Shown here piece after piece: positions 1,745-43,635 of a stretch of DNA of 53,678 nt. Source of the DNA: Candidatus Magasanikiibacteriota bacterium (GTDB lineage Bacteria; Patescibacteriota; Patescibacteriia; Magasanikbacterales; UBA922). The notes beneath the pieces are model-generated. The model was not told the DNA's origin and did not search any database. It was given only the letters and a program-made list of their open reading frames with translations. Both the position numbers and the translations under genes were made by a program. The DNA is taken from NCBI GenBank assembly GCA_016193335.1, contig JACPSK010000006.1:1-53678 (forward strand). The letters run 5' to 3'. Each line of letters opens with the position of its first letter. The first letter of the stretch is position 1.

Positions 1745-3166
1745 TTAGTTTTTCCAAATATTTTCAAAAAAAGTATCAACATCAGTGTATCCCAAATTTG
1801 ATGATAATGTTTTTATGAATTTTGATGCATCAATTTTGTCGAGTATTTCACTTTCGAGTTCAATATTGTTTTCTATCAGCTTTTTGTAAACAACAAAATA
1901 AGGGTTGCTGTTAACCTGTTTAATGGCTTCTTTGATAAGCTCTTTTACGGTTTTAGTTTTGTCCGTTCTGAGATCTATTTGGCTTAAAGTATCCTCACTC
2001 AAAAAATAATTTTCAATGCAGTATTTGTTGAGCTGTATTAGGTTGCTATATTTTGTTGATAGGTCTGTGCTTGGAATCGGATTATTATCGTTGTCGATCA
2101 GGAAATATGTATTTTGGACGTTTAGATTTTTGAATACTTCTGAGTATTTTTTAACTTCGCCACAGCCACCGTTCAAAATTGATACTTCTAAACTTTTTCC
2201 TGTAAGCGATTTAATTTTTTCAAGGATTTTTTTATGCGATTTATCTTCAACGTAAGCAATCTTGCTTTCAGTAGTAATGCCACCAATGATTTTTACTAGA
2301 TCTCCTGCCAGCGCTTGCTGTATGCCGTCGTTTGGCTTTTGTTTTGCGATTATCTTTCCATCTTCCCACACTAAAAATTGAGTTTTCTTTAGGAAGGGGT
2401 CTATGAAGCATGCACGAGAGTGAGTCACGATAATTATCTGTTTTTTGTGTTCATCACAAAACCAGTCCAGAAATTGAAAAAGCTTTTCCTCAAGTTGCCA
2501 GTTTAAATGCACTTCTGGCTCATCTATCAAATAGACTTTTGTGGAATCTTTTGCGTAAAAAATTGCAAACATCAATGATATTAAGGCATTTTCGCCCGAG
2601 CTAAGTTGAGATGGAGTTAAGTCGAAACCAGCTTTTTTGAATGAAAATTGATATTTGGTATTTTCTATATCCCAAGTAAAAGTGATTTGATAATCAAATA
2701 CCTTTTGCAGGATCGTCGTATAGCTTGTTGCTGATTGAGTTGTTGCGTCAATTTTCGGAGTGTTTTTGTTGACTAAGTCTTCTGCATGTAAAACAAGATA
2801 TTCCGAAATAGACTTTATCGTTTGAAAATTATCATCCTGTATATTTTGGTTTAAAAAGGTGCCTAAAGTACTTGTTCTTGCATTTTCATCTTTTCGGATA
2901 ATTTTTTGTGCTTGCTCGATCAACACTTTTTGAGCATTTCTTTTTGGACTAAAAGCGGCTATGTCTTTTGGTTTAGCATTGTCAAAAAATTCAACATTAT
3001 TTCCGCCTCTTTGTGAGAGAATGTGATTTAATAATTGCGTTTTGCCAGTGCCGTTACCACCAGCTATCACATTGAATCCCGGCTTAAACTCGATTTTCTG
3101 TTTAAAAATTGAGCTGAAAAGATCAACCTGAACGCTTTTGATGTAATTTTGTTGCTCGTCGCTCAT
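1745..3166 (-). CDS. ABC/AAA ATPase fused to a TOPRIM-like domain (OLD-family / PARIS AriAB-like defence protein)
   Basis: Walker A GGNGTGKT, signature LSSGE, Walker B LIDEPEVHL, H-loop VTHS; C-terminal YVED...LIDND...CIENY TOPRIM-like motifs. Confidence 0.75.
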   Translation of the reverse strand: MSDEQQNYIKSVQVDLFSSIFKQKIEFKPGFNVIAGGNGTGKTQLLNHILSQRGGNNVEFFDNAKPKDIAAFSPKRNAQKVLIEQAQKIIRKDENARTSTLGTFLNQNIQDDNFQTIKSISEYLVLHAEDLVNKNTPKIDATTQSATSYTTILQKVFDYQITFTWDIENTKYQFSFKKAGFDLTPSQLSSGENALISLMFAIFYAKDSTKVYLIDEPEVHLNWQLEEKLFQFLDWFCDEHKKQIIIVTHSRACFIDPFLKKTQFLVWEDGKIIAKQKPNDGIQQALAGDLVKIIGGITTESKIAYVEDKSHKKILEKIKSLTGKSLEVSILNGGCGEVKKYSEVFKNLNVQNTYFLIDNDNNPIPSTDLSTKYSNLIQLNKYCIENYFLSEDTLSQIDLRTDKTKTVKELIKEAIKQVNSNPYFVVYKKLIENNIELESEILDKIDASKFIKTLSSNLGYTDVDTFFENIWKN

Positions 3167-3177
3167 ATGTGGTCTCG

Positions 3178-5451
3178 TTATAGATTCTTTAACTCATTTA
3201 AAACCTCCTCCACATTCCCATTGTGAACCAAGAAGAAATGGAGCTTACCCTTGCCGAGTTTTACCCATTCGTCAGCGATAAGGATTTTGTATCCAGTATC
3301 TTCGTTACTGATTCGGTCTTCGCCTTTCCATTCAAGAGCAACGATATTGCCTTTTTTGGTGAGGGCGATAAAATCGGGATAAAACTTATTTTTCTGCCAG
3401 CCTAGAATATAGAAGGGGTCTTGCTTTTCACGATTGCGAACCCAAAACTCAACATTCGGTAGGCTATCAAGGTCTAGGCGTTCAACAAAACTTAATTCCT
3501 CCTTGTTTAGCTTGTCGATTTTTTCGTAGTAATTTTTGTTGAACTCTTGGGGTATTTGCTCTTTGAGCGTGATTGTTTCAGGGAAGTTCTCAAACGCCTT
3601 GGTCGCAATCTTCTTTTTCGCCACAAACTCAATGAAACGCTTTTTGGCGTAGGCTTCAAGCACGCTGTTTATGGCTTCGTTCAAGCGATCAAGGAACAAG
3701 TAGCGATTGACGGAAAGCTCGGCCAAAGATTTCTGCTTTAGTTGGTAATCAACGGCTTTATCAATGAATTTTACTTTGTTGGGCTTATCAAGCAGGGTAA
3801 AGCGGAGCTTTTTATCAAGCCATTGCACCAATTCCTGTTTTGAAAAGTTTTTGTCGCGGTAAGTAAGATTAAGAATTTGCTGTTTGCCCTTGTGCCATTT
3901 GTTGTCGTCCTCAATATCAATAATGGCGCGACCGTCATTGTCATAATGAATTTCAAAATCAAATTCGGCGTTTTGTTTGGCAAGTTCAAAATCTTCGCCG
4001 ATCAGTTCCTCGAAAGTCAGTTTTTCGTCCTCTAAACTCATCATCGGCACGGCAAAATCTTTTTTCACGGCTCGGTTTACTTCTTTGGGGTCTTTTGCGG
4101 TATCGCCGTTTGATGAAGCACCAATCAAATCAAGTTTGCTGTAGCCGTTTCTTTCAAGTCCTGAAATGATGTTGCTGACCGCTTCATTGAAGTTTTTGGC
4201 GGAAGCGAAAATGTAGGAGCGGTTTAATGCCTCGTTTTTCTTTCGTTTCGCATAGGGCATACGGATAATACGCCCGATGATCTGCTCTACGGCGATTTTT
4301 GCACCGACATTTGCAACGGAAATGAGGACATAAGCAAAAGAACAGTCCCAACCCTCGGCAAGTGCGCTAACGGTTATGATGTAGCGAATTTTGCATTTCT
4401 TGCTGAATAAATCCACACCCTCTAAATCGTTTCGGTCTGATGTTTTGATTGCGATTTCGTCCTCGGAAATTTTGGCGGAAAGCAAATACTCTTTGATCTG
4501 TTCAACTGTCACGTTATTTTGTGTTTGGCTCTTTGGCTGCGCTTGGATAAGTGCAATAGGGCGTATGTATTCGCCTGTATTCTTTTTGCCTTCTTTTTCA
4601 AGTTCGGCTCGTTTCTCAAGTCCGCGAGCAACGGCGTTTTTCCATTGGGCGGAGCTTTCAAGCACAAGCGGAATTTTCACCATTTGCTCGTCTTTGAGTT
4701 CGGCTGGGGAAATGTCCACCAAAATATTACTGCCGGAGCGTGGCGTAGCGGTGTATTCAATTACAAAACTTGGATTCAGACTATTGAGAAAATCCATTGA
4801 AAGCTCGGTTTTGGTTTTGTGTCCTTCATCAATCACCACAAGCGGATTGCTCATGCGGACGACATTTGCGAGCGAGTTTATGATTGTACCTTCCTCGTCC
4901 TTCTCAAGATCGTCTCGGTCATCAAGATTTTCAAAATGGCTCAAGAGCGAGCCGTTTTCCTGATAAACTTTGTATTTCTTTTGCAGTGTTTTTTCTTTGC
5001 GGAAAGCCTCCAAGCTGGAAATGATAATGCAAAGATTGTCCTGCACATCTTCTTTTCTGATTCGCAATGCTTCCTCGTTTGAAAAAATACGCACGCCGTT
5101 TTGAAAAGCCTCGTCTAAAACCTGTCTATGCCAGTCATTGCGGTCTTTAAACTTCTTGAGTGTTTGGGTTTTTATGGCTTCAGACGGTACAAACCACATC
5201 ACAATACCTCTATCCATTTTGTGCTTGAGGAAAGAGCGCATGATTTCGTTGACGGCATGACAGCCGACAAGCGTTTTTCCTCCGCCGGTCGGGATTTTGA
5301 CGCAAACAAAAGGAACATCACCGAAAAAGTCGCCGTGATACGGTCGGTCGGTTTCGCCCATGAAGGCATATTTTGGCCCGACGGCCTCTATACCTTTGAG
5401 ATAGGCTTTGAGTTTGTCTAACGCTGATTGTTGATATTTTTTGAGTTCCAT
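3178..5451 (-). CDS. res: Type III restriction enzyme Res subunit
   Basis: PTGGGKT, DEGH, YTATP, EGWD, QIIGRIIR helicase motifs; C-terminal YPDF...EWKG PD-(D/E)xK nuclease. Confidence 0.9.
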   Translation of the reverse strand: MELKKYQQSALDKLKAYLKGIEAVGPKYAFMGETDRPYHGDFFGDVPFVCVKIPTGGGKTLVGCHAVNEIMRSFLKHKMDRGIVMWFVPSEAIKTQTLKKFKDRNDWHRQVLDEAFQNGVRIFSNEEALRIRKEDVQDNLCIIISSLEAFRKEKTLQKKYKVYQENGSLLSHFENLDDRDDLEKDEEGTIINSLANVVRMSNPLVVIDEGHKTKTELSMDFLNSLNPSFVIEYTATPRSGSNILVDISPAELKDEQMVKIPLVLESSAQWKNAVARGLEKRAELEKEGKKNTGEYIRPIALIQAQPKSQTQNNVTVEQIKEYLLSAKISEDEIAIKTSDRNDLEGVDLFSKKCKIRYIITVSALAEGWDCSFAYVLISVANVGAKIAVEQIIGRIIRMPYAKRKKNEALNRSYIFASAKNFNEAVSNIISGLERNGYSKLDLIGASSNGDTAKDPKEVNRAVKKDFAVPMMSLEDEKLTFEELIGEDFELAKQNAEFDFEIHYDNDGRAIIDIEDDNKWHKGKQQILNLTYRDKNFSKQELVQWLDKKLRFTLLDKPNKVKFIDKAVDYQLKQKSLAELSVNRYLFLDRLNEAINSVLEAYAKKRFIEFVAKKKIATKAFENFPETITLKEQIPQEFNKNYYEKIDKLNKEELSFVERLDLDSLPNVEFWVRNREKQDPFYILGWQKNKFYPDFIALTKKGNIVALEWKGEDRISNEDTGYKILIADEWVKLGKGKLHFFLVHNGNVEEVLNELKNL

Positions 5452-5453
5452 AA

Positions 5454-6998
5454 TTAGTAGATTTTAACTTCGTAGGGAATTTGCTTGAAGACAACATTGT
5501 ATTTTTCAAGCGTGGTTTCATCGAGTAAGCACTTGTCGGCGTAGACAACTTTTTTGCTATCGTTCTTTTTTAGTTTTTTCAAGAAAGATTTGCTCAACAC
5601 ATTTTCGCCTTTTTCTTTATAGATCAGATAATACTCGATTTCCGCGTACTCGCCGATATAATTTGCCGATACTTTGGCATGGTCAATGTTGGTTTGCGTT
5701 TCGGTAAAATAAATGTAGGTTGCGAATTGATCAAAGTCGCAGGTGTCCTCGATTTGACCTTCTTCATCAAATAGCGGTTTGCTGAGTTCGCAATATTCAA
5801 AGCCGTCTTTATATCCATATTTTTCACTTGCCCGTTTTACTCTTTCTGCAGTGATGTTTTTTGCGACCTCGTCTTCCATTTCAACAAGAATAAATTTGCG
5901 GTTTCCGCCATCCTCTTTGTTCAAGTCTAAAACGGCGTGGCCTGTTGTGCCCGAACCAGCGAAAGAATCCAGTATTAAATCGTTACTATTAGAGGAAAGT
6001 TGAATAATTCTTTTTAAAAGTCGAACAGGCTTAGGTGTTGCAAAGCCATTTTCAGGAAAAATATTTTTATAATCCTTTTTTGCCTCATCGTTACTTCCTA
6101 CTTCGTCATACAACCAAATAGTTTTTGGTATCACTCCTTGTTTCATTTCGTTTAGGTATTTTTTGAGACGTGGTACGGCATCGCCTTTTTTACCAAACCA
6201 AATTGTCCCTTCTTTGTCGGCTCCTTTTAATGTTTGTACGCTGTATCGAGGAAAAGTTCCGGCCGGTGGCCGCCATTTTACGCCATTTTCAAAAGTAAAT
6301 TCATATCCCGTGTCTGTGCCACTTTTTGCATGAAGTGGTTGGGTCATCCAAGGCCCCCGAGGATCGTTATCTGGATTTTTATAACGAGCGTCTTGCTCTT
6401 CTGTTCGCGCAATTAAATTGATATTAAAATTAGTATTCTTTTTATCTTTTGCGTAACAGACAATAAAATCATGGGTGGCTGAAAAATATTTTGCGTCATT
6501 ACTTTGGGTATATTTTTTTTGCCATATGATATTTGCAACAAAATTTTCTTCTCTAAAAATCTCATCCAATACCTGTTTCAAGTTGCAATGCTCGTTATCA
6601 TCAATGGATACAAATATAGAGCCGTCATCTGATAATAAATCTCTAAGTAACTTGAGGCGCGGATACATCATACAAAGCCATTTGTCATGCCGGCAAAGAT
6701 CCTCTGAATCTCGACCAACCACTTTTCCTAGCCATTTCTTGATTTTAGGAGAATTAACTTTGTCATTATAAATCCATCCTTCATTTCCCGTGTTATATGG
6801 TGGATCAATATAGATACATTTTACTTTGCCAGTATAAAAAGGCATGAGTGCTTTTAATGCTTCAAGATTGTCGCCGTGAATGATCAGATTTTGAGAATTG
6901 CCTACTGAAGCCGACTTAATTTTTTTGAGTAGCCGAAAGGGAACCTCTTTATCGTGGTTTACTACTGCTTCTTTTCCAATCCAGTTTAATGTAGGCAT
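5454..6998 (-). CDS. mod: Type III R-M Mod subunit (N6-adenine methyltransferase)
   Basis: MPTLNWIGK start, GDNLEAL, IYIDPPYNTG, TPKP, LDSFAGSGTT. Confidence 0.92.
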   Translation of the reverse strand: MPTLNWIGKEAVVNHDKEVPFRLLKKIKSASVGNSQNLIIHGDNLEALKALMPFYTGKVKCIYIDPPYNTGNEGWIYNDKVNSPKIKKWLGKVVGRDSEDLCRHDKWLCMMYPRLKLLRDLLSDDGSIFVSIDDNEHCNLKQVLDEIFREENFVANIIWQKKYTQSNDAKYFSATHDFIVCYAKDKKNTNFNINLIARTEEQDARYKNPDNDPRGPWMTQPLHAKSGTDTGYEFTFENGVKWRPPAGTFPRYSVQTLKGADKEGTIWFGKKGDAVPRLKKYLNEMKQGVIPKTIWLYDEVGSNDEAKKDYKNIFPENGFATPKPVRLLKRIIQLSSNSNDLILDSFAGSGTTGHAVLDLNKEDGGNRKFILVEMEDEVAKNITAERVKRASEKYGYKDGFEYCELSKPLFDEEGQIEDTCDFDQFATYIYFTETQTNIDHAKVSANYIGEYAEIEYYLIYKEKGENVLSKSFLKKLKKNDSKKVVYADKCLLDETTLEKYNVVFKQIPYEVKIY

Positions 6999-25343: not shown

Positions 25344-25688
25344 TTAGGATTCTAGAAATAAAGCCAATGAAGCGCCGAGGAGCCCGATGTCGCGCACGAT
25401 TACGTTTTCCATGCCACTCGCGGTGCTGATGAGCACTCCGGCGAGATGCAGAGACGCGAAAAATGCGGCTATTTTGACCCGTACCCCTGTGATGATCCAG
25501 GCTCCAAGAAGCATGTCAATAATGGCCGTGCTTTTCATAAATTGCTCCAGATTTCCCGGTATTTTGCTTTGAGCCCATTCTTGCATGAAACTTCCCCACA
25601 AAAGCGGTTCAGACCAAATAAGCCAGCCAATCCAGATAAAGGTGATGCCCAAACCAAGGCGCAAGCTGATGAGAGCTGATTTTCTCAT
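25344..25688 (-). CDS. DoxX family membrane protein
   Basis: LRLGLGITFIWIG, VRDIGLLG; hydrophobic helices. Confidence 0.75.
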   Translation of the reverse strand: MRKSALISLRLGLGITFIWIGWLIWSEPLLWGSFMQEWAQSKIPGNLEQFMKSTAIIDMLLGAWIITGVRVKIAAFFASLHLAGVLISTASGMENVIVRDIGLLGASLALFLES

Positions 25689-26077: not shown

Positions 26078-26476
26078 ATGCTTTGGCCTCAACTATCGCA
26101 ATATTCTGATCTCGGTTTTTTTCTTCTGCGTTTGTCTGTCGCTCTTATTTTTTTGTATCATGCTTGGCCTAAGATGAAAAATCCCAAAGCTTTTGCCGGT
26201 ATGATGGGGGGCCAAAATATGGTTTGGTTTCCCTTTGTTTTGGGTCTGGCCGAGCTTGTTGGAGCTCTTGGAGTTCTAAGCGGTGTTTGGTTGCAAGTCT
26301 CTGCTTTGATTCTGGTTTTTGTGATGCTTGGAGCCATGAGCATGAAAATAGGGAAGTGGAAAATCCCTTTTTCCGCTATGGATAAGATGGGCTGGGAATT
26401 TGATTTGATTTTGCTCGCCGCCAGTCTCTTGCTTTTGTTCTCCGGTGGCGGCGCAATGTTGATACTGGGTGTTTAA
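26078..26476 (+). CDS. DoxX family membrane protein
   Basis: LLRLSVALIFLYHAWPK, AELVG, GWEFDLILL. Confidence 0.85.
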   Translation: MLWPQLSQYSDLGFFLLRLSVALIFLYHAWPKMKNPKAFAGMMGGQNMVWFPFVLGLAELVGALGVLSGVWLQVSALILVFVMLGAMSMKIGKWKIPFSAMDKMGWEFDLILLAASLLLLFSGGGAMLILGV

Positions 26477-26477
26477 G

Positions 26478-26518
26478 TTTGAAACTGGCTCAAAATTATT
26501 TTTGAGCCGAGGCTCTAG
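26478..26518. repeat. Dispersed palindromic repeat copy between convergent genes
   Basis: TTTGAAACTGGCTCAAAATTATTTTTGAGCCGAGGCTCTAG; near-identical to the reverse complement of 52427-52466. Confidence 0.75.
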
Positions 26519-27048
26519 ACAATTTCCTTGCTCAACAAACTGGTCTTTTTTGCGTAGTAAGTTCCCGTTTCGTAGATTCCGGCGAGGATGCAAATATAAA
26601 ATAAATCAGCAAAAAGACTGTTTTTGAAAAAGGGTATGGCCATGACATAGCTCTGAACCAATCCGTTTAGATTGTGCGCATACATAGTCCCAAAAAGCCA
26701 CACCGCCGCGTTCGTAATTAAGAAAAAAATAATTGATCCGAGCATAGTGCCTCCTATGATCCTGCTCAGGCGTCTTTTTTTTCTTATTATTAAACCTATC
26801 AGTCCCATGATGATAAATCCCAGATACACGGATATCATAATGGCAGGATTGTAAAATCCTATAATCATATCACTCAAAAACATGGCACTGAGCGGAAGCA
26901 GTAAAGCTATACGTTTTGGAAGATATACTCCGCCAAAAATGGCCAGGGCTCCTATGGGAGCGAAATTCGCGGGATGGGGGAGGAGCCTGGCGCTCACTCC
27001 AAGAGCAAGGGTGATGAGAACAATAAAAATATCGTTTTTATTTTTCAT
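26515..27048 (-). CDS. DUF6580-type membrane protein, ECF S-component-like (putative cobalamin uptake)
   Basis: RLLPHPANFAPIGALAIFGG, MFLSD, FFLITNAAVW, YVMAIPFF; multiple TM helices; last gene of the riboswitch operon. Confidence 0.7.
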   Translation of the reverse strand: MKNKNDIFIVLITLALGVSARLLPHPANFAPIGALAIFGGVYLPKRIALLLPLSAMFLSDMIIGFYNPAIMISVYLGFIIMGLIGLIIRKKRRLSRIIGGTMLGSIIFFLITNAAVWLFGTMYAHNLNGLVQSYVMAIPFFKNSLFADLFYICILAGIYETGTYYAKKTSLLSKEIV

Positions 27049-27110
27049 ATAGGTATCGCGATGTTTTGTCGTCTTATTTGACTGAGTTGGAAATAATTTC
27101 AGTCAGCTTA

Positions 27111-29870
27111 TTATACCAGAGTGCGGATAAAGCGCCAGCCGATGAATACTCCCAGACTGAGAGTCGCCACGAGAGCGCTGTTAAAAATTTTTTTGACAAT
27201 CCTGGCTATAAGAGGTTCAGATTCTGGTATTTGCTCAATGCCTTTCTCTTCTTCAATTTTTTGGTCCTCTGTGTTTTGTCCTTGATCTGCTTGTTGGCCT
27301 GAAATTTCGGGCTCAGCATTTCCTTCCGCTTTATTTTCTGTGTCCGATATTTTTTTTTCGTTTAAGCTTTGAGTCTTCTTCGTTTCGGAAAGATTGGAAG
27401 CGGAGCTTTGGGCCGCTTTGTTTGTTTGGTCTTGTCCTGGTGCGGATTCTTTTTCTTTGTTGTTTTGGATCATCCTTTCGTCTGCTTGTTTTTCCGGCTC
27501 TGTTTTGGCTTCAGACATCGGGGCTTCAATGATTTGCGTGGAATCTGCGTTTGTCTCTATGTTTGGAATCGGGAAACCCCCGCTCCCACTTTGTGTTGTG
27601 TCCCCTTTGTTGTTTTGGCTTGGACTTTGTGGTTTTGTGAAAGCAAACAATAGTTGTTCCCATGTCTTTTTTTGACTTGCCGGTATGGCATAAGCAGTGG
27701 CCCAGATTCTGTTGTTTATGTTTTCAGAAGCCAAGATGCCACCGTCTTCACCTTGTTGGGCAGCGAGATAATCAAAAGGATTTTTATTATTTTTAACCCA
27801 GAGCTCTGGATCTTCGCCAAGAGCCAGAATACCTTGAATTGCCCAACTGCTGCTGTATGTATTGCCAAATCCCGCGTCTGATCCTTGCTCTGCCACAAGA
27901 TATGAGCGGGCCTTTGAGAGAGCTTCTTTGACGCCTGCTTTATCCGTAAAGGCGGATAAAGCTTGAATGCCGGCCGCAGTCATATCTACGCTTCCCCAGG
28001 AACCTTCTGTTTGTTTTGAGAGTATGAAATCAGCGCTTTTCGAGATCATTGATTCTGTCGCGGCATATCCGGCTTTGTTCAAAACAATGAGAGCAAAAAT
28101 GTCGTCGTTCACCAGATTTGAATCTCCAAATTGTGTTCCATCGAAACCTGCCGTGATCTGTTCTATGTAATTTAAATTAGTGTCAGAGTATGGATTAATC
28201 CCCAGAGCCATTAGAGCCATGGCTCTTCGTTCAAAATCCGCGAGCGTATTTATCCCGATGAAAGGGCTTGGATTTGATAAAAGATATGTTTTTAGAAGAT
28301 TTTTATTTTCACTGTTTAATCCATGCGAGGCGAAACTTAAGGCTGTCCAGTCTGTGTATAAGGTCGAACTGCCAAAAGAGCCGTCCGTATTTTGATGTTT
28401 AATCAAGAAATCTACGGCTGATTCCAGATTAAATATACTTTTTGAAACATTACTGTCCGTTTGAATCCCTTGCGAATTTGTCTGAGGTGGCTGGGCCACG
28501 CTGTTCCCACAGGTTGTGCAACTTTGATTCACTGTTTGCGCCAGAACTTTTACTTTGAGTGCATGACTTCTGCTTTTTCCGTTTTCATGCGCGAATACCA
28601 AGAAATCGCCGTCCTTATCCGGTATCCATGTCAAAGTTCCTGAGGCCGATTGTACAAGCGTTGAGTTGATATAAAAGTCCAAGCTTCCTGAATAGGGCTC
28701 AAATATATTGCTTTCATCGCTCCAGATCAGAGAAGAAATGTTTATTGGCGTGCCGACTTCTGTGCTTGTGGCAGAAGCTTCCAAGAATAGCGGATCCATA
28801 TCCCAAGCCCCATAGGTCAAAAGCAGCTCATCTCCATTGTTCAGTTCAAGATCAGCAAGCCCCAGATCCGCCAGCTTATTATTATGCCGTACAATCCAAA
28901 ATTCACTGAAATCAACCGCGTTTTCTATGGTATTTATACGGTCCAAGAACAATCCGAAAGACAACGCCGTAACCTGATAGCTCAGAAGCCCCAAGTCAGA
29001 CGCCTGTTCAAGAGCACAGATGGCTTTTGAAGAAGAGAAGGAGAATGTGGAACTGGCGCTGTCGCTTACACTGCAAGCTTCTTCCAAAGTCAGACCGGTG
29101 TCTACTGCTTCGTTCAATCCGCTTACAATATGCAGAGTAATTTGGGGAGCCGGCGGCTTCTCTGCAATAGAAAGAGAAATAGCCTTGCTTCTTGTTTTGT
29201 TTTTTTGTTCAACATATATAGAAAAATCGCCTGTATTTTGAGCTTCCCAACTCAAGCTGCTGCTCGTAATTTCATATATCTCTGTGCCAATATGTATGCT
29301 ACTGCTTACGATCTGATTTTGTGTGATGAAGGCGTTTGATTCGTCTTCCCAACTGAAGATATTGATATCAATCAAATCGCCAAGTTCTGCCGTGCTGGTG
29401 GAAAGTTCCACTTTCAAGGGATCCATATCCCAAGCCCCATAGGTCAAAAGCAGTTCATCTCCATTGTTCAGTTCAAGATCAGCAAGCCCCAGATCCGCCA
29501 GCTTATTATTATGCCGCACAATCCAAAATTCACTGAAATCAACCGCGTTTTCCGTATTATTTATACGGTCCAAGAACAATCCGAAAGACGACGCCGTAAC
29601 CTGGTAGCTCAGAAGCCCCAACTCAGACGCCTGCTCAAGAGCACAGATGGCTTTTGAAGAAGAGAAAGAGAATATGGAACTGGCGCTGTCGTTTATTTCA
29701 CAGTCCGCTTCAAGCGTTATGGTTTTTTGGACAATATGTTCAACAGGGGATTCGATTCTGAGCTGGACCTGGATGGCGTCTTGGGCCGCTGTCTGCCCGG
29801 GCCAGAGAAAAATCACGGCGAGAAATCCCAGAGATATTGTCTGAATCAAGGCTTTATTCTTCTTTTTCAT
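27111..29870 (-). CDS. Surface protein with two DUF4430 (transcobalamin beta-like) domains, Ig-like spacers, a prenyltransferase/squalene-oxidase-repeat barrel, a stalk and a C-terminal TM anchor
   Basis: Signal peptide; duplicated FGLFLDRIN...FW...G...L..GD motif; QNTDGSFG, QTEGSW, QGSDAGFG, QGEDGG repeats; low-complexity linker; TM followed by RFIR. Confidence 0.75.
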   Translation of the reverse strand: MKKKNKALIQTISLGFLAVIFLWPGQTAAQDAIQVQLRIESPVEHIVQKTITLEADCEINDSASSIFSFSSSKAICALEQASELGLLSYQVTASSFGLFLDRINNTENAVDFSEFWIVRHNNKLADLGLADLELNNGDELLLTYGAWDMDPLKVELSTSTAELGDLIDINIFSWEDESNAFITQNQIVSSSIHIGTEIYEITSSSLSWEAQNTGDFSIYVEQKNKTRSKAISLSIAEKPPAPQITLHIVSGLNEAVDTGLTLEEACSVSDSASSTFSFSSSKAICALEQASDLGLLSYQVTALSFGLFLDRINTIENAVDFSEFWIVRHNNKLADLGLADLELNNGDELLLTYGAWDMDPLFLEASATSTEVGTPINISSLIWSDESNIFEPYSGSLDFYINSTLVQSASGTLTWIPDKDGDFLVFAHENGKSRSHALKVKVLAQTVNQSCTTCGNSVAQPPQTNSQGIQTDSNVSKSIFNLESAVDFLIKHQNTDGSFGSSTLYTDWTALSFASHGLNSENKNLLKTYLLSNPSPFIGINTLADFERRAMALMALGINPYSDTNLNYIEQITAGFDGTQFGDSNLVNDDIFALIVLNKAGYAATESMISKSADFILSKQTEGSWGSVDMTAAGIQALSAFTDKAGVKEALSKARSYLVAEQGSDAGFGNTYSSSWAIQGILALGEDPELWVKNNKNPFDYLAAQQGEDGGILASENINNRIWATAYAIPASQKKTWEQLLFAFTKPQSPSQNNKGDTTQSGSGGFPIPNIETNADSTQIIEAPMSEAKTEPEKQADERMIQNNKEKESAPGQDQTNKAAQSSASNLSETKKTQSLNEKKISDTENKAEGNAEPEISGQQADQGQNTEDQKIEEEKGIEQIPESEPLIARIVKKIFNSALVATLSLGVFIGWRFIRTLV
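28792..29691. repeat. 273 bp intragenic direct repeat (28792-29064 and 29419-29691)
   Basis: About 12 mismatches by manual alignment; offset 627 bp, in frame. Confidence 0.9.
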
Positions 29871-30549
29871 AGTTCCATTCTATTATGTCATCCTGTTTAA
29901 TATGATAGGCAGAGACGCCTATCTGGGCTTTGACGCCATTGATATAATAAATCCAGTATTGTTTTTCTTTTGTGTTGTTTGATAATTCGTTTATGCTCTC
30001 TATGAAGAAGCCAAGCCCTGGGCCAAAGTTTTTGCTTGTAAATGTGAAGCCTGGATTTTTTTGGGCCGTTTCATTCATTGCTTCATAAAGCGATGCGTTT
30101 ACCCCCACGTCCATTTCATAGTTTTCTTCTTTTATTTTGAGTGTGAAATGTTTTGTCTCAGAGGATTTTGCTTCCTTTTCCGGTGTTTCTGTGAATGGCG
30201 CGTCATCTCTTTGAGATCTTGGGGCAGTGTCAGCCGCATAATTCGAATTTGTTTGAGCATCTGATGTTTTTTCATTGGCAGCAGCTTTCGGGTTCAAGGC
30301 TTTGGCGTTGTTTTGATATTTTTGTTTGTCAGTATCTGTTTCTTCAAGGGCTGTATCTTTGTTATTTTTTGCGGTTTTTTCCGAAGTATCTTGGATTTCT
30401 ATTCCATTCTCTTGCAAAGCATATATTTTTTTTGAGAAAAAATTTGGCGCGGATGAATTGAAACCTAGCACGCCGCTTGTGAGAGCCAGTATTCCAAAAA
30501 ATCCGAGGAGGATATAATAGATTTTATGTTTTTGATGAAAATCACGCAT
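29854..30549 (-). CDS. Membrane-anchored DUF4430 domain protein (CbrS-like)
   Basis: N-terminal TM, low-complexity stalk, GLGFFIESIN...YWIYYING...GVSAY...DDIIEWNY. Confidence 0.8.
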   Translation of the reverse strand: MRDFHQKHKIYYILLGFFGILALTSGVLGFNSSAPNFFSKKIYALQENGIEIQDTSEKTAKNNKDTALEETDTDKQKYQNNAKALNPKAAANEKTSDAQTNSNYAADTAPRSQRDDAPFTETPEKEAKSSETKHFTLKIKEENYEMDVGVNASLYEAMNETAQKNPGFTFTSKNFGPGLGFFIESINELSNNTKEKQYWIYYINGVKAQIGVSAYHIKQDDIIEWNYEKEE

Positions 30550-30631
30550 AAAAAAATCCTTCCCAGCAGAGAAAGACTATATGGCGATATCTGGCCAAAG
30601 GCCTTTGATATCCTTTTCCTGCTCGGGATAT

Positions 30632-30814
30632 ATGCATATTTGAAGATCGGACTCCTGTCTTCGCTTTGCTACCTTGGGTAAGTGTCTCATTTTTTTTGAC
30701 TCTTATCCTAGATGTAGCCCCTGATGGGGGCGAAGCCAGATTACCGTTGCGGCACAGTGGAGGAATTCCTTGCCATAGATATGGCTTGGGCACCTCACTT
30801 CCACAAATATACAT
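30632..30814 (-). ncRNA. Cobalamin riboswitch
   Basis: Minus strand GGAAGTGAGGTG...AATTCCTCCACTGTGCCGCAACGGTAA...GAAGACAGGAGTCCG; closing helix ATGTATATTTG/CAAATATGCAT; directly upstream of DUF4430 genes. Confidence 0.78.
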
Positions 30815-30829
30815 TTGAATTGTAAGTGA

Positions 30830-30858
30830 AAGGTATCACGGCTTTTATGCACTGTCAA
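30830..30858 (-). promoter_or_regulatory. Sigma70 promoter for the riboswitch operon
   Basis: TTGACA-17 bp-TACCTT with extended TG, just upstream of the riboswitch. Confidence 0.6.
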
Positions 30859-30910
30859 ATGTCGTTCTCACAATAGATTTTATGGTTCTGGGGATAACTC
30901 CAAGCCCATG

Positions 30911-31000
30911 TTTCCATAACATATTTTTATAAATTCTGCGGAGTCAGTCCGCTTCGCTCTCGCACTCGTCCTTAGGATTTATAAAAATCTGTTATGGAAA
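30911..31000. repeat. 90 bp palindromic element
   Basis: TTTCCATAACATATTTTTATAAAT ... ATTTATAAAAATCTGTTATGGAAA. Confidence 0.7.
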
Positions 31001-31093
31001 GATAGGCTATTATAATTCGATGGCTATCCGGACACAGCGGGCATTGCGTCTTCTCCTTGTTTTTTCGGCCACATTAGGCTAGCATAGGCGGAT

Positions 31094-41058: not shown

Positions 41059-43635
41059 CTACAGGGAGGCCTCTATCATATCTGTTTTGCCGCTTTTTTC
41101 CGCGCCACCGAGTTTGGTTCTTTCAAGTATTTCAGCTTCCACAATACCTCGATCTCTGCCATATTTCAAGCGAGACAATTGCTTTATGGCTTCGCCCAGT
41201 TCTTTGTTGCCCGGTTTCGGAGGATAACTCAGCATACTAAAGGGCTTGGCCGTCTCATTGTCTATGAGCAATTTGGTATAGTAAGAAAATTGTTGAGGAT
41301 TCAAGAGATCATAAGATCCAAACACAGGGGCAAACTCTTTTGCCAGTATATCCGCGTCCTCAGGGCCAATACGCCCTACGCACATGGTTCCCACATTGCC
41401 GAGCACCGCGTCCCGAATCGCGGATTTTCCTTTGTCGTCGGTGAGTTGGCCCATGTATTGGTGCGCGATAATAAGATCAAGCCGATATTTGCGGGCTTCT
41501 GAGAGAATGGTTGAGATTGAGTCAGTTACAAAATTTTGGAATTCGTCAATATAAAGATAAAAATCTTTTCGATGTTCTTCGTCCGTGGAGGCCCGGGCCA
41601 TGGCAGCCATCTGAAGTTTGGCGACCACAATGAGGCCAAGAAGTTTGGCGTTAACTTCGCCCGTGGTGCCTTTGGAAAGATTAACCAAGAGAATTTTTTC
41701 TTCGTCCATGAGTTCGCGGAAATTGAATCCTGATTTTTGCTGTCCCATGATATTGCGCATCATTTCATTTTCCACGAATCTGCCTACCTTTGAAATAAGA
41801 TAGCCGAGCATTTCTGATTTGTGAAAATCGCTCGTTTGCGCCATTTCTTTTTCCCAAAAGGCTCTTACCACCGGATCTTTGAGTTTCACCAGATATTTTT
41901 TTACATACGCGTTGTCTGTAAACATCCGGGGAATATCTATAATGGTTCCGGGGTCATTGAGGTCTGCCATGAGAGTAAGCATGACATTTCTCATGTTGTG
42001 CTCAAACATGGGCCCTATCATTTCCGGAGGGAAGAGTTTGTAGAAAATGCTGATCATTTCCTGGACCGCGAAGTCTTTTTGATCTTCGGTTTTTGCCTCG
42101 AGCATGTTGAGGCCTATGGGCCGCTCGAGATCAGAAGGGTTGAAAATCACTACGTCATCAGCTCGGTGTTTGGGCACATGTTTGAGCACGTCTTCCACCA
42201 GGTCTCCATGCGGGTCCACCACGCAAACGCCTTTGTCGTTTTGTATGTCTTGTATGGCCAAATTTTGTATCAGTACCGATTTTCCAGTGCCTGATTTGCC
42301 GATAATATAGAGATGGCGGCGACGATCGGCTTCTTTGATGAATATGGAAGTATCTATGCCTCGGTATTTAACATGGCCGAGGAGAAGCCCTGAATTCGCC
42401 ACGTTGGATGGAGGAGGAGCCGTGCGCCCGCTTAGCCATTTGATATTTGGAGCTTCGGTGGAATGAAGCGGCAGATGCCATAGTCCGGCCATTTCTTCGG
42501 TGTTCACCAGCGTTTTGCGATGTTCATGAAAGCTTCGGTAGATGAATTCCTGGATGATTTTTTTTTGATTCCGCGGCATAATGGCGCCAAATTCATTGCC
42601 ATAACGGTAGAGATTGAATTGGCTGAATGAGTTGAGAATGTTTTCCAGATTTAAGCGCGCTGTATTTTCATTGTCCGACGCGGAGACAACTCGTATGGTC
42701 ATATCCAGACCTCCTTTGGACAATTTTTGTTCAATTCCCTTGAGCATTTCTTCTTCCATGGAAGAAAGCTGGTAGCGGTTGTTCATGGATTGATGATCCT
42801 TGTTTGAGGAACTCAAAACCACTTCGCGGAATGCTTTGCCACTTTTGCCTATGCCTTGCATAAAGCGACTTCTATGCGCGACACGTTCAAATTTTTCCCC
42901 TTTTTTAACTTCTCTCACTATGTAGACTCCTTGTCTGCGCCAGGATCGCTTCGCGGAACGAATTATGTATTGGACTGCCACTGAACTGTTTTCCTCGCGT
43001 ACCCGTGAAAGCGCGTTCAACAAAGAAGACAAAGGATCGGAATCCATGCTTTTGTATGTCTTGAAGGGGAAGACAAGGGTTTTTTTGGCGGCGAGATAAG
43101 ATCCGAGAACAGTACTTTGGGGCCCGAAGATATTATAATCACTCATTTCTTCTATGTGAGCGTAAGGATATTGAGCATGAATCTGCTGTTCGAGAAAATT
43201 ACGTAATTTGTGCGGCACGGCCACGTAAAAATAAATAAGGCTGTTGTGCACTACCAGTTCAAAAGAAAGATGATCCGAACGTCCGCGGAACCAGCTGAGT
43301 ACGCCTCGTTCAGCTCGAAGCCCCGCTATGGTGGCAAACAAAGTTTCGGTAATGCCGATTTCTTCTTTTATGTGTTCGAGTCTGTCTTCCTGCTGAGGAT
43401 TTTGGCCTGTTCCTTCGGATTTTCGTTCTTTGGGAACTTGGATTTGGAGTACCACTCGGTCAAAAGCTCCTGCTATCTTAAAAATATTTCTCGTGAATAT
43501 GCTGACAAGATACGATAAGCTCCCTATGGCAAGAATGACCAAGAGGGAGAGAATGATACTAAAAAAAACATCAGCGCCCGGTGTCGGATTTCCTGAAAGA
43601 GACCCGTATTGATTATTGAGAAAAAGCTGAAGCAT
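41059..43635 (-). CDS. VirD4/TraD-like coupling ATPase (HerA/FtsK superfamily)
   Basis: N-terminal TM; HLYIIGKSGTGKS, DPHGD, LYIDEFQNF, SEARKY, AHQY. Confidence 0.85.
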   Translation of the reverse strand: MLQLFLNNQYGSLSGNPTPGADVFFSIILSLLVILAIGSLSYLVSIFTRNIFKIAGAFDRVVLQIQVPKERKSEGTGQNPQQEDRLEHIKEEIGITETLFATIAGLRAERGVLSWFRGRSDHLSFELVVHNSLIYFYVAVPHKLRNFLEQQIHAQYPYAHIEEMSDYNIFGPQSTVLGSYLAAKKTLVFPFKTYKSMDSDPLSSLLNALSRVREENSSVAVQYIIRSAKRSWRRQGVYIVREVKKGEKFERVAHRSRFMQGIGKSGKAFREVVLSSSNKDHQSMNNRYQLSSMEEEMLKGIEQKLSKGGLDMTIRVVSASDNENTARLNLENILNSFSQFNLYRYGNEFGAIMPRNQKKIIQEFIYRSFHEHRKTLVNTEEMAGLWHLPLHSTEAPNIKWLSGRTAPPPSNVANSGLLLGHVKYRGIDTSIFIKEADRRRHLYIIGKSGTGKSVLIQNLAIQDIQNDKGVCVVDPHGDLVEDVLKHVPKHRADDVVIFNPSDLERPIGLNMLEAKTEDQKDFAVQEMISIFYKLFPPEMIGPMFEHNMRNVMLTLMADLNDPGTIIDIPRMFTDNAYVKKYLVKLKDPVVRAFWEKEMAQTSDFHKSEMLGYLISKVGRFVENEMMRNIMGQQKSGFNFRELMDEEKILLVNLSKGTTGEVNAKLLGLIVVAKLQMAAMARASTDEEHRKDFYLYIDEFQNFVTDSISTILSEARKYRLDLIIAHQYMGQLTDDKGKSAIRDAVLGNVGTMCVGRIGPEDADILAKEFAPVFGSYDLLNPQQFSYYTKLLIDNETAKPFSMLSYPPKPGNKELGEAIKQLSRLKYGRDRGIVEAEILERTKLGGAEKSGKTDMIEASL

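Follow-up and report, generated by a model that had tools for sequence, protein, structure and literature searches.

Predicted riboswitch-controlled operon for cobalamin scavenging and uptake, with a DUF6580 membrane protein, in a Patescibacteria bacterium

A predicted cobalamin uptake operon

A DNA stretch of 53,678 nucleotides (nt), referred to here as the window, was analyzed from a Candidatus Magasanikiibacteriota bacterium (GenBank assembly GCA_016193335.1, contig JACPSK010000006.1). It carries a three-gene operon that is probably repressed by vitamin B12 and serves the scavenging and import of complete cobalamin. This uptake would be independent of an energy-coupling factor (ECF) module and would take place in a member of the Patescibacteria (Candidate Phyla Radiation, CPR) that is unable to make or remodel corrinoids. 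The genome measures 1.1 Mb in 8 contigs and is 93% complete; the operon and its leader are encoded on the minus strand of its contig 6.

Three open reading frames (ORFs) follow each other head to tail behind the leader (30594-30858). Gene 1 (29854-30549, minus strand) encodes a protein of 231 amino acids (aa) with a DUF4430 domain (PF14478; 60.5 bits against a cut-off of 23.8, E 2.1e-16). Gene 2 (27111-29870, minus strand), whose first 17 nt overlap with the end of gene 1, encodes a 919-aa protein with two DUF4430 stretches (48.3 bits) and a match to SQHop_cyclase_C at 22.3 bits against a cut-off of 26.1. Gene 3 (26515-27048, minus strand) encodes a 177-aa membrane protein of the DUF6580 family (PF20221; 168 bits against a cut-off of 27). 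A gap of 540 nt separates the operon from a divergent Dus gene upstream. A preliminary description of this DNA had listed a promoter, a cobalamin riboswitch and three genes, and all of them were located where it had placed them on the minus strand, including the DUF4430 protein, which is gene 1 with its PF14478 domain. Pfam scans of 39 ORFs of the window (32 and 7) returned housekeeping genes and no ECF module, BtuFCD system or TonB receptor, which agrees with the earlier statement that no ECF ATPase or T subunit, BtuFCD or TonB receptor is encoded in the window.

Cobalamin-clan riboswitch in the leader

The leader contains a cobalamin-clan aptamer of the adenosylcobalamin (AdoCbl) type and the start of an expression platform (30594-30833, minus strand). 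It was recognized at 101 bits (E 2.7e-22) by R1, a covariance model built from the leaders of 13 relatives with the window leader excluded, and this match is the only one in the window as well as in the whole genome. R1 matched 29 of the 30 DUF4430 loci searched and 16 of the 17 that lay outside its training set, the single miss being locus L027. Alignment A3, comprising 31 sequences and fitted to R1, had 93.8% of its cells paired compared with 35-48% when the partners were slid, and 185 cells with double changes compared with 23-49. Such double changes occurred in 18 of the 30 pairs. An independent alignment by MAFFT and RNAalifold showed compensatory changes in 15 of 30 pairs.

The Rfam model RF00174 aligned end to end with the leader (30628-30855, minus strand) and scored 19.3 bits, where the gathering score is 31.5; the E value of 0.0044-0.013 applies to the short stretch searched. 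No cobalamin match at the Rfam gathering threshold was found in the window, where only a tRNA was returned, and the whole genome contained no RF00174 match at E ≤ 0.001. The cmscan alignment of the leader extends over model positions 1-189 and includes matches to the GGUGC, GCCGCAAC and AGGAG-CC blocks, which are invariant in 15 aligned leaders. The window leader aligns block for block with the leaders of its relatives and carries two insertions that are atypical of the lineage, one of ~27 nt within a hairpin loop and one of ~79 nt within the P6-like helix. The low Rfam score is attributed to these two extra insertions.

RF00174 was also surveyed in 101 related genomes at E ≤ 0.01. Eleven matches were found in 10 genomes, one of them above the threshold, and 8 of the 11 are located just upstream of, and on the same strand as, a small DUF4430 gene. 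When looser filters were applied to the loci of 20 relatives, 16 gave a match to the cobalamin clan: 15 to RF01482 (AdoCbl), of which five reached at least the gathering score of 50, and one to RF00174. Comparison with Rfam by Infernal had been proposed as a check of the riboswitch; the window leader itself remained below the RF00174 threshold, and five of the 20 relatives' loci reached that of RF01482. Because of the R1 matches, the Rfam matches in relatives and the covariation, the leader is regarded as a real cobalamin-clan riboswitch. Judged from its sequence, it is a genuine, lineage-divergent member of clan CL00101 (RF00174, RF01482 and RF01689) that stands closest to the AdoCbl family, and the riboswitch named in the preliminary description is borne out in this divergent form.

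Two further riboswitch loci were observed in the related genomes. Genome G044, which lacks DUF4430 and DUF6580, carries a riboswitch of the same type (R1, 83.9 bits; L097:7977-8127, minus strand). It precedes the gene of an 838-aa protein without a Pfam match (L097:5429-7945, minus strand), and this protein may likewise act at the surface or in uptake under B12 control. The sole above-threshold RF00174 match among the 101 relatives (99 bits) is located on contig 10 of genome G046 (L006, L016), which also encodes CobT, an ABC ATPase and a TonB-dependent receptor. Such genes are out of place in a member of the Patescibacteria, and the contig is probably a contaminant in that assembly.

Putative promoter and proposed expression platform

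A putative sigma-70-type promoter was read from the sequence at 30830-30858 (minus strand), with TTGACA at 30858-30853, a 17-nt spacer and TACCTT at 30835-30830. The -35 element is perfect, and the -10 element matches 3 of the 6 consensus bases; a consensus promoter scan was silent on this pair because the -10 element is weak. The promoter is plausible and is located ~6 nt upstream of the conserved ACAAT box with which the leader alignment begins.

Just 3' of the aptamer is the CCCGAGCAGGAA box (30616-30627, minus strand), which is conserved in most of the relatives' leaders. When the 3' part of the leader was folded without the 5' half of the aptamer, this box was able to pair with 30575-30562 as an alternative to a downstream hairpin, its partner being the 5' arm of that hairpin. 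The hairpin (30578-30555) and a run of 7 T (30556-30550), detected by a terminator scan, form a terminator-like element at 30550-30578 (minus strand). The hairpin covers a Shine-Dalgarno-like GGGAAGGA (30564-30557), located 7 nt before the start codon of gene 1 (ATG at 30549). The aptamer and the hairpin coexist when the complete leader is folded to its minimum free energy. These predicted folds suggest that the leader acts as an OFF switch through termination, occlusion of the ribosome-binding site, or both.

DUF6580 membrane protein

The PF20221 match of gene 3 covers profile positions 4-154 of 162, and the predicted model of the protein has a predicted local distance difference test score (pLDDT) of 91.2 and a predicted template modelling score (pTM) of 0.85. 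With VIA-align, the model superposed on cobalamin-bound BtuM (8ovv) with Z 15.2 and a root-mean-square deviation (rmsd) of 2.7 over 160 of 177 residues. The 22 best VIA-align matches are all ECF S-components (Z 9.9-15.2), and MreD follows at Z 9.0. Foldseek also placed BtuM first (TM 0.68, E 0.04). According to the predicted model, gene 3 folds as an ECF S-component, so the earlier wording of an S-component-like membrane protein was well chosen.

In an alignment of DUF6580 sequences, His25 is invariant in 57 of 57. In the Atlas, DUF6580 clusters also occur in other phyla, and one cluster of 95 members contains DUF6580 fused to a TonB-dependent receptor; another DUF6580 cluster carries the automatic name 'putative MreD'. 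No DUF6580 fusions were found among longer proteins, which is weak evidence. A complex prediction for DUF6580 with the SLBB domain of gene 1 returned a score of 0.00, which weighs neither way.

BtuM of Thiobacillus denitrificans is, in the available part of its description, a solitary S-component that transports B12 without an ECF module and needs an invariant Co-ligating cysteine, Cys80 (PMC6072759). DUF6580 resembles BtuM (8ovv, 8c7p), its nearest solved structure, in being a small solitary protein of S-component fold for which no ECF module was found. Unlike BtuM, it has no detectable sequence similarity to that protein, no such cysteine, and an invariant His25 instead. BtuM is associated with BtuB in Gram-negatives, whereas the partner of DUF6580 is a tethered SLBB protein. 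A second relevant system is ECF-CbrT, which belongs, according to the accessible text, to the nrdJ-cbrS-cbrT-pduO cluster of Lactobacillus delbrueckii (PMC5997447). Like the route proposed here, ECF-CbrT (6fnp) is a B12 transporter of S-component type that serves NrdJ and PduO. In contrast, CbrT needs EcfT and EcfAA', and here EcfT was not found and nrdJ-pduO lies on another contig than the operon.

Surface proteins of the operon

Gene 1 is a predicted membrane-tethered, transcobalamin-like SLBB protein. It consists of an N-terminal hydrophobic segment (aa 9-32), a low-complexity polar linker of ~100 residues and a C-terminal SLBB/DUF4430 domain (aa ~150-229). Its sequence is weakly similar to that of the beta domain in haptocorrin (4kki, E 0.0014) and in intrinsic factor. 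In some orthologues, a lipobox-like Cys takes the place of the hydrophobic segment.

The gene 2 protein begins with a signal peptide, which is followed by two SLBB-sandwich modules, a toroid, a stalk and a putative C-terminal anchor. Its two tandem modules of ~209 aa (28536-29786, minus strand; aa ~29-237 and 238-445) each combine a DUF4430/SLBB domain with a beta-sandwich. They are 59% identical over 204 aa (E 6e-75), and at the DNA level they share a 300-nt core (28752-29051 and 29379-29678) with 90% identity. The alpha/alpha toroid (27642-28445, minus strand; aa ~476-743) is followed by the stalk and C-terminal tail (27111-27635, minus strand). The stalk (aa ~746-885) is an acidic region of ~140 residues in which Glu, Gln, Ser and Lys are abundant, and the tail, which contains a hydrophobic segment (aa ~893-915), is the probable membrane anchor. 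The terminal sequence has no visible LPXTG motif. The large anchored protein with two DUF4430 domains and an alpha-barrel of the preliminary description is recovered here as two PF14478 stretches, a toroid, a signal and a C-terminal tail.

An AlphaFold2 model of gene 2 (aa 28-750) had a mean pLDDT of 88.5 and a pTM of 0.52, values at which the individual domains are confident and their arrangement is not. In VIA-align comparisons, the toroid matched terpene cyclases with Z 24.5 (rmsd 3.0, 251 residues aligned), intrinsic factor 2pmv with Z 21.4 (rmsd 3.1, 234 aligned), transcobalamins with Z 19.2-19.9 and haptocorrin 4kki with Z 19.0. A sequence search of the PDB with profile A4 returned squalene-hopene cyclase (E 4e-19) and no B12 carriers. 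PF01122 scored below its cut-off of 25 bits in the proteins of four relatives (17.5, 19.8, 24.2 and 21.8 bits), and many database homologues of gene 2 bear precomputed PF01122 labels. A whole-chain Foldseek list was full of alpha-2-macroglobulin and complement proteins; this was read as a common mix of domains (beta-sandwiches with a thioester-type toroid) and not as kinship. The B12 carriers came up only in the VIA-align comparison.

In animal carriers, an alpha domain, a linker and a beta domain form one soluble chain, an architecture from which gene 2 differs. The toroid of gene 2 is of the kind that, in transcobalamin and intrinsic factor, clamps B12 together with the beta domain. The toroid superposes on the whole alpha domain of transcobalamin, intrinsic factor and haptocorrin (2bb5, 2pmv, 4kki), and SLBB is the Pfam family of the carriers' beta domain. 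Unlike the animal carriers, the operon has a reversed domain order, a duplicated SLBB module, a membrane tether on a stalk, a separate protein with a single SLBB domain and no PF01122 match that reaches the threshold. The likeness to transcobalamin proposed earlier therefore holds for both domain types, with the toroid at Z 19-21 on intrinsic factor and transcobalamin, and with their order reversed. The surface B12-capture lipoproteins BtuG and BtuH of Bacteroides are riboswitch-controlled and act upstream of the transporter, at the outer membrane with BtuB; their folds are unrelated to those of the surface proteins described here.

Burroughs et al. defined the SLBB superfamily in 2007 and, in the available part of that paper, predicted that bacterial surface SLBB-toroid proteins are B12 scavengers (PMC1796856). 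In those proteins, SLBB occurs on either side of the toroid, a second SLBB paralogue is often present in the operon, and the hosts lack B12 synthesis. The operon of the window shares with them the signal peptide, predicted surface anchoring, SLBB-toroid fusion, immunoglobulin-like spacers and second SLBB paralogue. The 2007 operons encode CbiO-like ATPases and CbiQ-like membrane proteins, whereas here CbiQ/EcfT was not found in the genome, none scored above the cut-off in the 101 relatives, and the partner is DUF6580. The accessible text of the 2007 paper contains no mention of a riboswitch, and the paper predates knowledge of the Patescibacteria.

B12 demand of the genome

The sole PF02867-type reductase in the genome is a class II NrdJ of 1178 aa (TIGR02504, 595 bits; PF08471). 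A PduO-type adenosyltransferase gene begins 70 nt downstream of nrdJ, and both are located on another contig than the operon. A class II ribonucleotide reductase (RNR) had been suggested as the consumer of the imported corrinoid, and a genome search for nrdJ and ECF modules had been proposed; nrdJ was found as the only RNR of the PF02867 type with pduO adjacent, and EcfT was not found. CobA, PF02310, EcfT/CbiQ, FecCD, PF12822, CobS and CbiB had no match in this 93% complete genome. With regard to EcfT and its dedicated ATPases, the result concerns EcfT, as no separate ATPase search was made. CbiQ was above the cut-off in 0 of the 101 related genomes. Since NrdJ and PduO are present and the importers and synthesis genes were not found, the cell needs ready-made cobalamin and can adenosylate it, without a recognized importer.

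About half of the window's family has another reductase of ~950-1000 aa, which scores 360-399 bits with TIGR02504, just under the cut-off, and occurs without PduO, DUF4430 and DUF6580. Within this family, a change between lifestyles that do and do not depend on B12 is suggested.

Conservation and distribution

Among the 101 related genomes, 41 encode DUF4430 and 43 encode DUF6580, and DUF6580 is present in every genome that has DUF4430. In 38 of the 41, both are encoded on one contig in the same orientation within ~4 kb. The operons of 20 relatives were fetched, and they consist of the small SLBB gene, a gene for a large toroid protein (526-1022 aa), sometimes a DUF4430-like ORF of ~125 aa, and the DUF6580 gene. 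Genome G084 is an exception in which the operon consists of no more than the small SLBB gene and DUF6580, also next to Dus; in genome G034, the operon is complete and its first gene has diverged.

Across 201 genomes of the phylum, DUF6580 occurs in 53, DUF4430 in 59 and both in 50. The pair is adjacent or within 4 kb in 41 of these 50 genomes, mostly as a minimal two-gene unit. Twenty of the 41 pairs were fetched; nine had an upstream cobalamin-clan match in Rfam at E ≤ 0.1, and R1 added a tenth. Four of the 20 scored at least the gathering score, and they did so with three Rfam families (RF01482, RF00174 and RF01689).

In the window's family (61 genomes), the operon is present in 33 genomes, NrdJ at or above the cut-off in 34 and both in 31, which leaves 3 that have NrdJ alone and 2 that have the operon alone. 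A further 18 genomes from the rest of the order have NrdJ without the operon.

In three genomes of the phylum-wide sample, a match to DUF6580 or DUF4430 contains one in-frame TAA or TAG (G135:C24:107969-108746, G253:C6:34801-35277 and G212:C16:43968-44447). These stops could reflect a pseudogene, a sequencing error or stop-codon reassignment.

Proposed mechanism

It can be hypothesized that the operon responds to B12 as follows. At low intracellular adenosylcobalamin, the aptamer would be unliganded and the CCCGAGCAGGAA box would pair just upstream of the ribosome-binding site, which would allow the operon to be transcribed and translated. When the ligand is bound, the hairpin at 30578-30555 with its T-run would form, and either the ribosome-binding site would be hidden or transcription would be terminated.

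Outside the cell, the small SLBB protein would be tethered by its N-terminus, and the large protein would stand on its stalk of ~140 residues with a C-terminal anchor. Both surface proteins may bind corrinoids; in the large one, the likely site would be between an SLBB domain and the toroid. They would deliver the corrinoid to DUF6580, through which it would enter the cell with no ATPase module involved, a mode of transport proposed for BtuM. Inside the cell, PduO would adenosylate the cobalamin, which would then be trapped and supplied to NrdJ. We infer that the surface proteins bind corrinoids and hand them to DUF6580, and that a host may be the source.

A broader hypothesis, in which confidence is evenly balanced, is that DUF6580 represents a third family of B12 transporters with the S-component fold. 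Its members would be free of ECF, would use an invariant His in place of the Cys of BtuM and would be fed by tethered SLBB proteins. The SLBB-DUF6580 pair, with both genes in 50 of 201 genomes, would then be the main entry of B12 into Patescibacteria, and the stalked SLBB-toroid protein would be a lineage add-on that reaches out, possibly to the surface of a host cell.

Points against the proposed function and alternative explanations

Several points weigh against the proposed uptake of cobalamin. No energy source for transport was identified, and the window leader remains below Rfam's own threshold. The gene 2 model, with a pTM of 0.52, contains no confident packing of SLBB onto the toroid; the toroid scores higher with terpene cyclases (Z 24) than with B12 carriers (Z 19-21); a Pfam scan gave no PF01122 match in the gene 2 protein; and the SLBB-SLBB-toroid order is the reverse of that in transcobalamin. 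The fold of DUF6580 does not single out B12, because the Z score of BtuM is within 1 of that of RibU. A significant sequence match to solved S-components is absent, since DUF6580 alone gave none and the best match of its profile was 6fnp_A, an ECF-CbrT chain, at E 0.18. The invariant Cys of BtuM has no counterpart, and no column of the 57-sequence alignment contains more than 23% Cys. In addition, the operon is missing from 21 of 58 related genomes with NrdJ, and 5 of the 42 genomes with the operon have no NrdJ above the cut-off; among these five, G035 has fragments and G006 has no RNR at all. These exceptions indicate that the link between the operon and NrdJ is not obligatory, and the co-occurrence counts overstate independence because the genomes are related.

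It is extremely improbable that the leader is no riboswitch, that its weak Rfam match arose by chance and that the operon is not regulated by B12. The 19.3 bits under the gathering score and the empty genome-wide Rfam search would fit this explanation, but they are opposed by the sole genome match of R1 at 101 bits, the matches at 16 of 17 unused loci, the Rfam matches at 16 of 20 loci and the covariation. Another explanation concerns gene 2, which could be an enzyme of the terpene cyclase or prenyltransferase type unrelated to B12. Class II terpene cyclases are indeed its best matches in both fold and sequence, and its homologues are named 'terpene cyclase/mutase family protein' in the source databases. 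This function is nevertheless very improbable for a protein with a signal peptide, an extracellular stalk and an anchor, fused to SLBB domains of the B12-carrier type behind a cobalamin riboswitch. The D-V-D-D (D-x-D-D) stretch of squalene-hopene cyclase, which we take to be the catalytic acid motif, aligns to g-a-D-i in the family profile, with one of three Asp matched. Because of the extracellular layout and the genomic context, we think that the public naming as terpene cyclase is wrong.

The nature of the ligand and the role of DUF6580 also have to be considered. The operon could take up another tetrapyrrole or an incomplete corrinoid (haem, cobinamide or another cobamide), with the riboswitch only coupling its expression to B12 status. 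Haptocorrin-type binders accept many corrinoids, which counts in favor of this explanation. An ECF-like operon of Lactobacillus sakei with transcobalamin-like alpha and beta subunits was proposed for haem, according to the available part of a preprint (bioRxiv 10.1101/864751), and the accessible text of Burroughs et al. allows 'B12 or its precursors' (PMC1796856). Such a ligand is quite unlikely here, because cobinamide could not be completed when CobS and CbiB were not found in the genome; in distant lineages, the gene pair is also preceded by cobalamin-clan riboswitches, which belong to three Rfam families, and the operon tracks NrdJ in the window's family. It is also possible, though unlikely, that the surface proteins bind B12 and that DUF6580 has a role other than transport, as an anchor, an assembly partner or an envelope protein resembling MreD. 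In that case, B12 would enter by another import route or would be withheld from competitors. The 'putative MreD' cluster name in the Atlas, the presence of MreD in the fold list (Z 9.0), the missing cysteine that is essential in BtuM and the lack of a known energizer are consistent with this explanation. On the other side, the 22 best structural matches are all ECF S-components and rank above MreD, the minimal unit conserved across the phylum is the small SLBB gene with DUF6580, the alternatives FecCD, EcfT and PF12822 were not found in the genome, and the cluster of 95 TonB-receptor fusions fits an uptake role. The B12-repressed uptake of complete cobalamin therefore remains the preferred explanation for the operon.

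Other features of the window

Two small membrane proteins of the DoxX family were identified by Pfam directly downstream of the operon (25344-25688, minus strand, and 26078-26476, plus strand). Between the Dus gene and the operon promoter lies a hairpin-forming palindrome of ~100 nt (30904-31007), with a folding energy of -43 kcal/mol over 120 nt. This palindrome is the cause of spurious miRNA-family matches. Its core has ~19 further partial copies on contigs 1, 2, 4, 5 and 8, and it therefore belongs to a dispersed palindromic repeat family. At 1745-6998 (minus strand), an AAA_15/AAA_21 ATPase, a ResIII helicase and an N6_N4 DNA methylase are adjacent and resemble a type III-like restriction-modification or defence cluster. 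An 858-aa homologue of TrwB/VirD4-like coupling proteins is encoded at 41059-43635 (minus strand), and a similar gene is present near the riboswitch locus of G044.

Significance

Surface transcobalamin-like B12 scavengers were already predicted in 2007, as stated in the available part of that work (PMC1796856), and the new elements are the DUF6580 partner and the Patescibacteria setting. A full-text search of a limited literature collection found no mention of DUF6580 and nothing that contained 'Patescibacteria' and 'cobalamin riboswitch' together. Among the papers listed for DUF4430, as represented by titles and the openings of abstracts, none concerned bacterial B12 capture. The operon couples a predicted transcobalamin-like surface scavenger to an uncharacterized family of S-components that would be ECF-independent, and to a riboswitch subtype that is under-detected by Rfam. 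The Rfam cobalamin models miss many riboswitches in Patescibacteria, as one of 101 related genomes exceeds the RF00174 threshold compared with 29 of 30 loci that match R1.

Patescibacteria have minimal genomes without B12 synthesis, and many of them depend on a B12-requiring ribonucleotide reductase for DNA synthesis. No characterized answer to how B12 enters these cells was found in the literature searched. If DUF6580 is a transporter, a function would be named for a Pfam family that is found in several phyla. It would be the second solitary S-component to import a vitamin after BtuM, with a different cobalt chemistry, and would bear on how such proteins work without ATP. It would also support the 2007 proposal that animal transcobalamin descended from bacterial surface scavengers.

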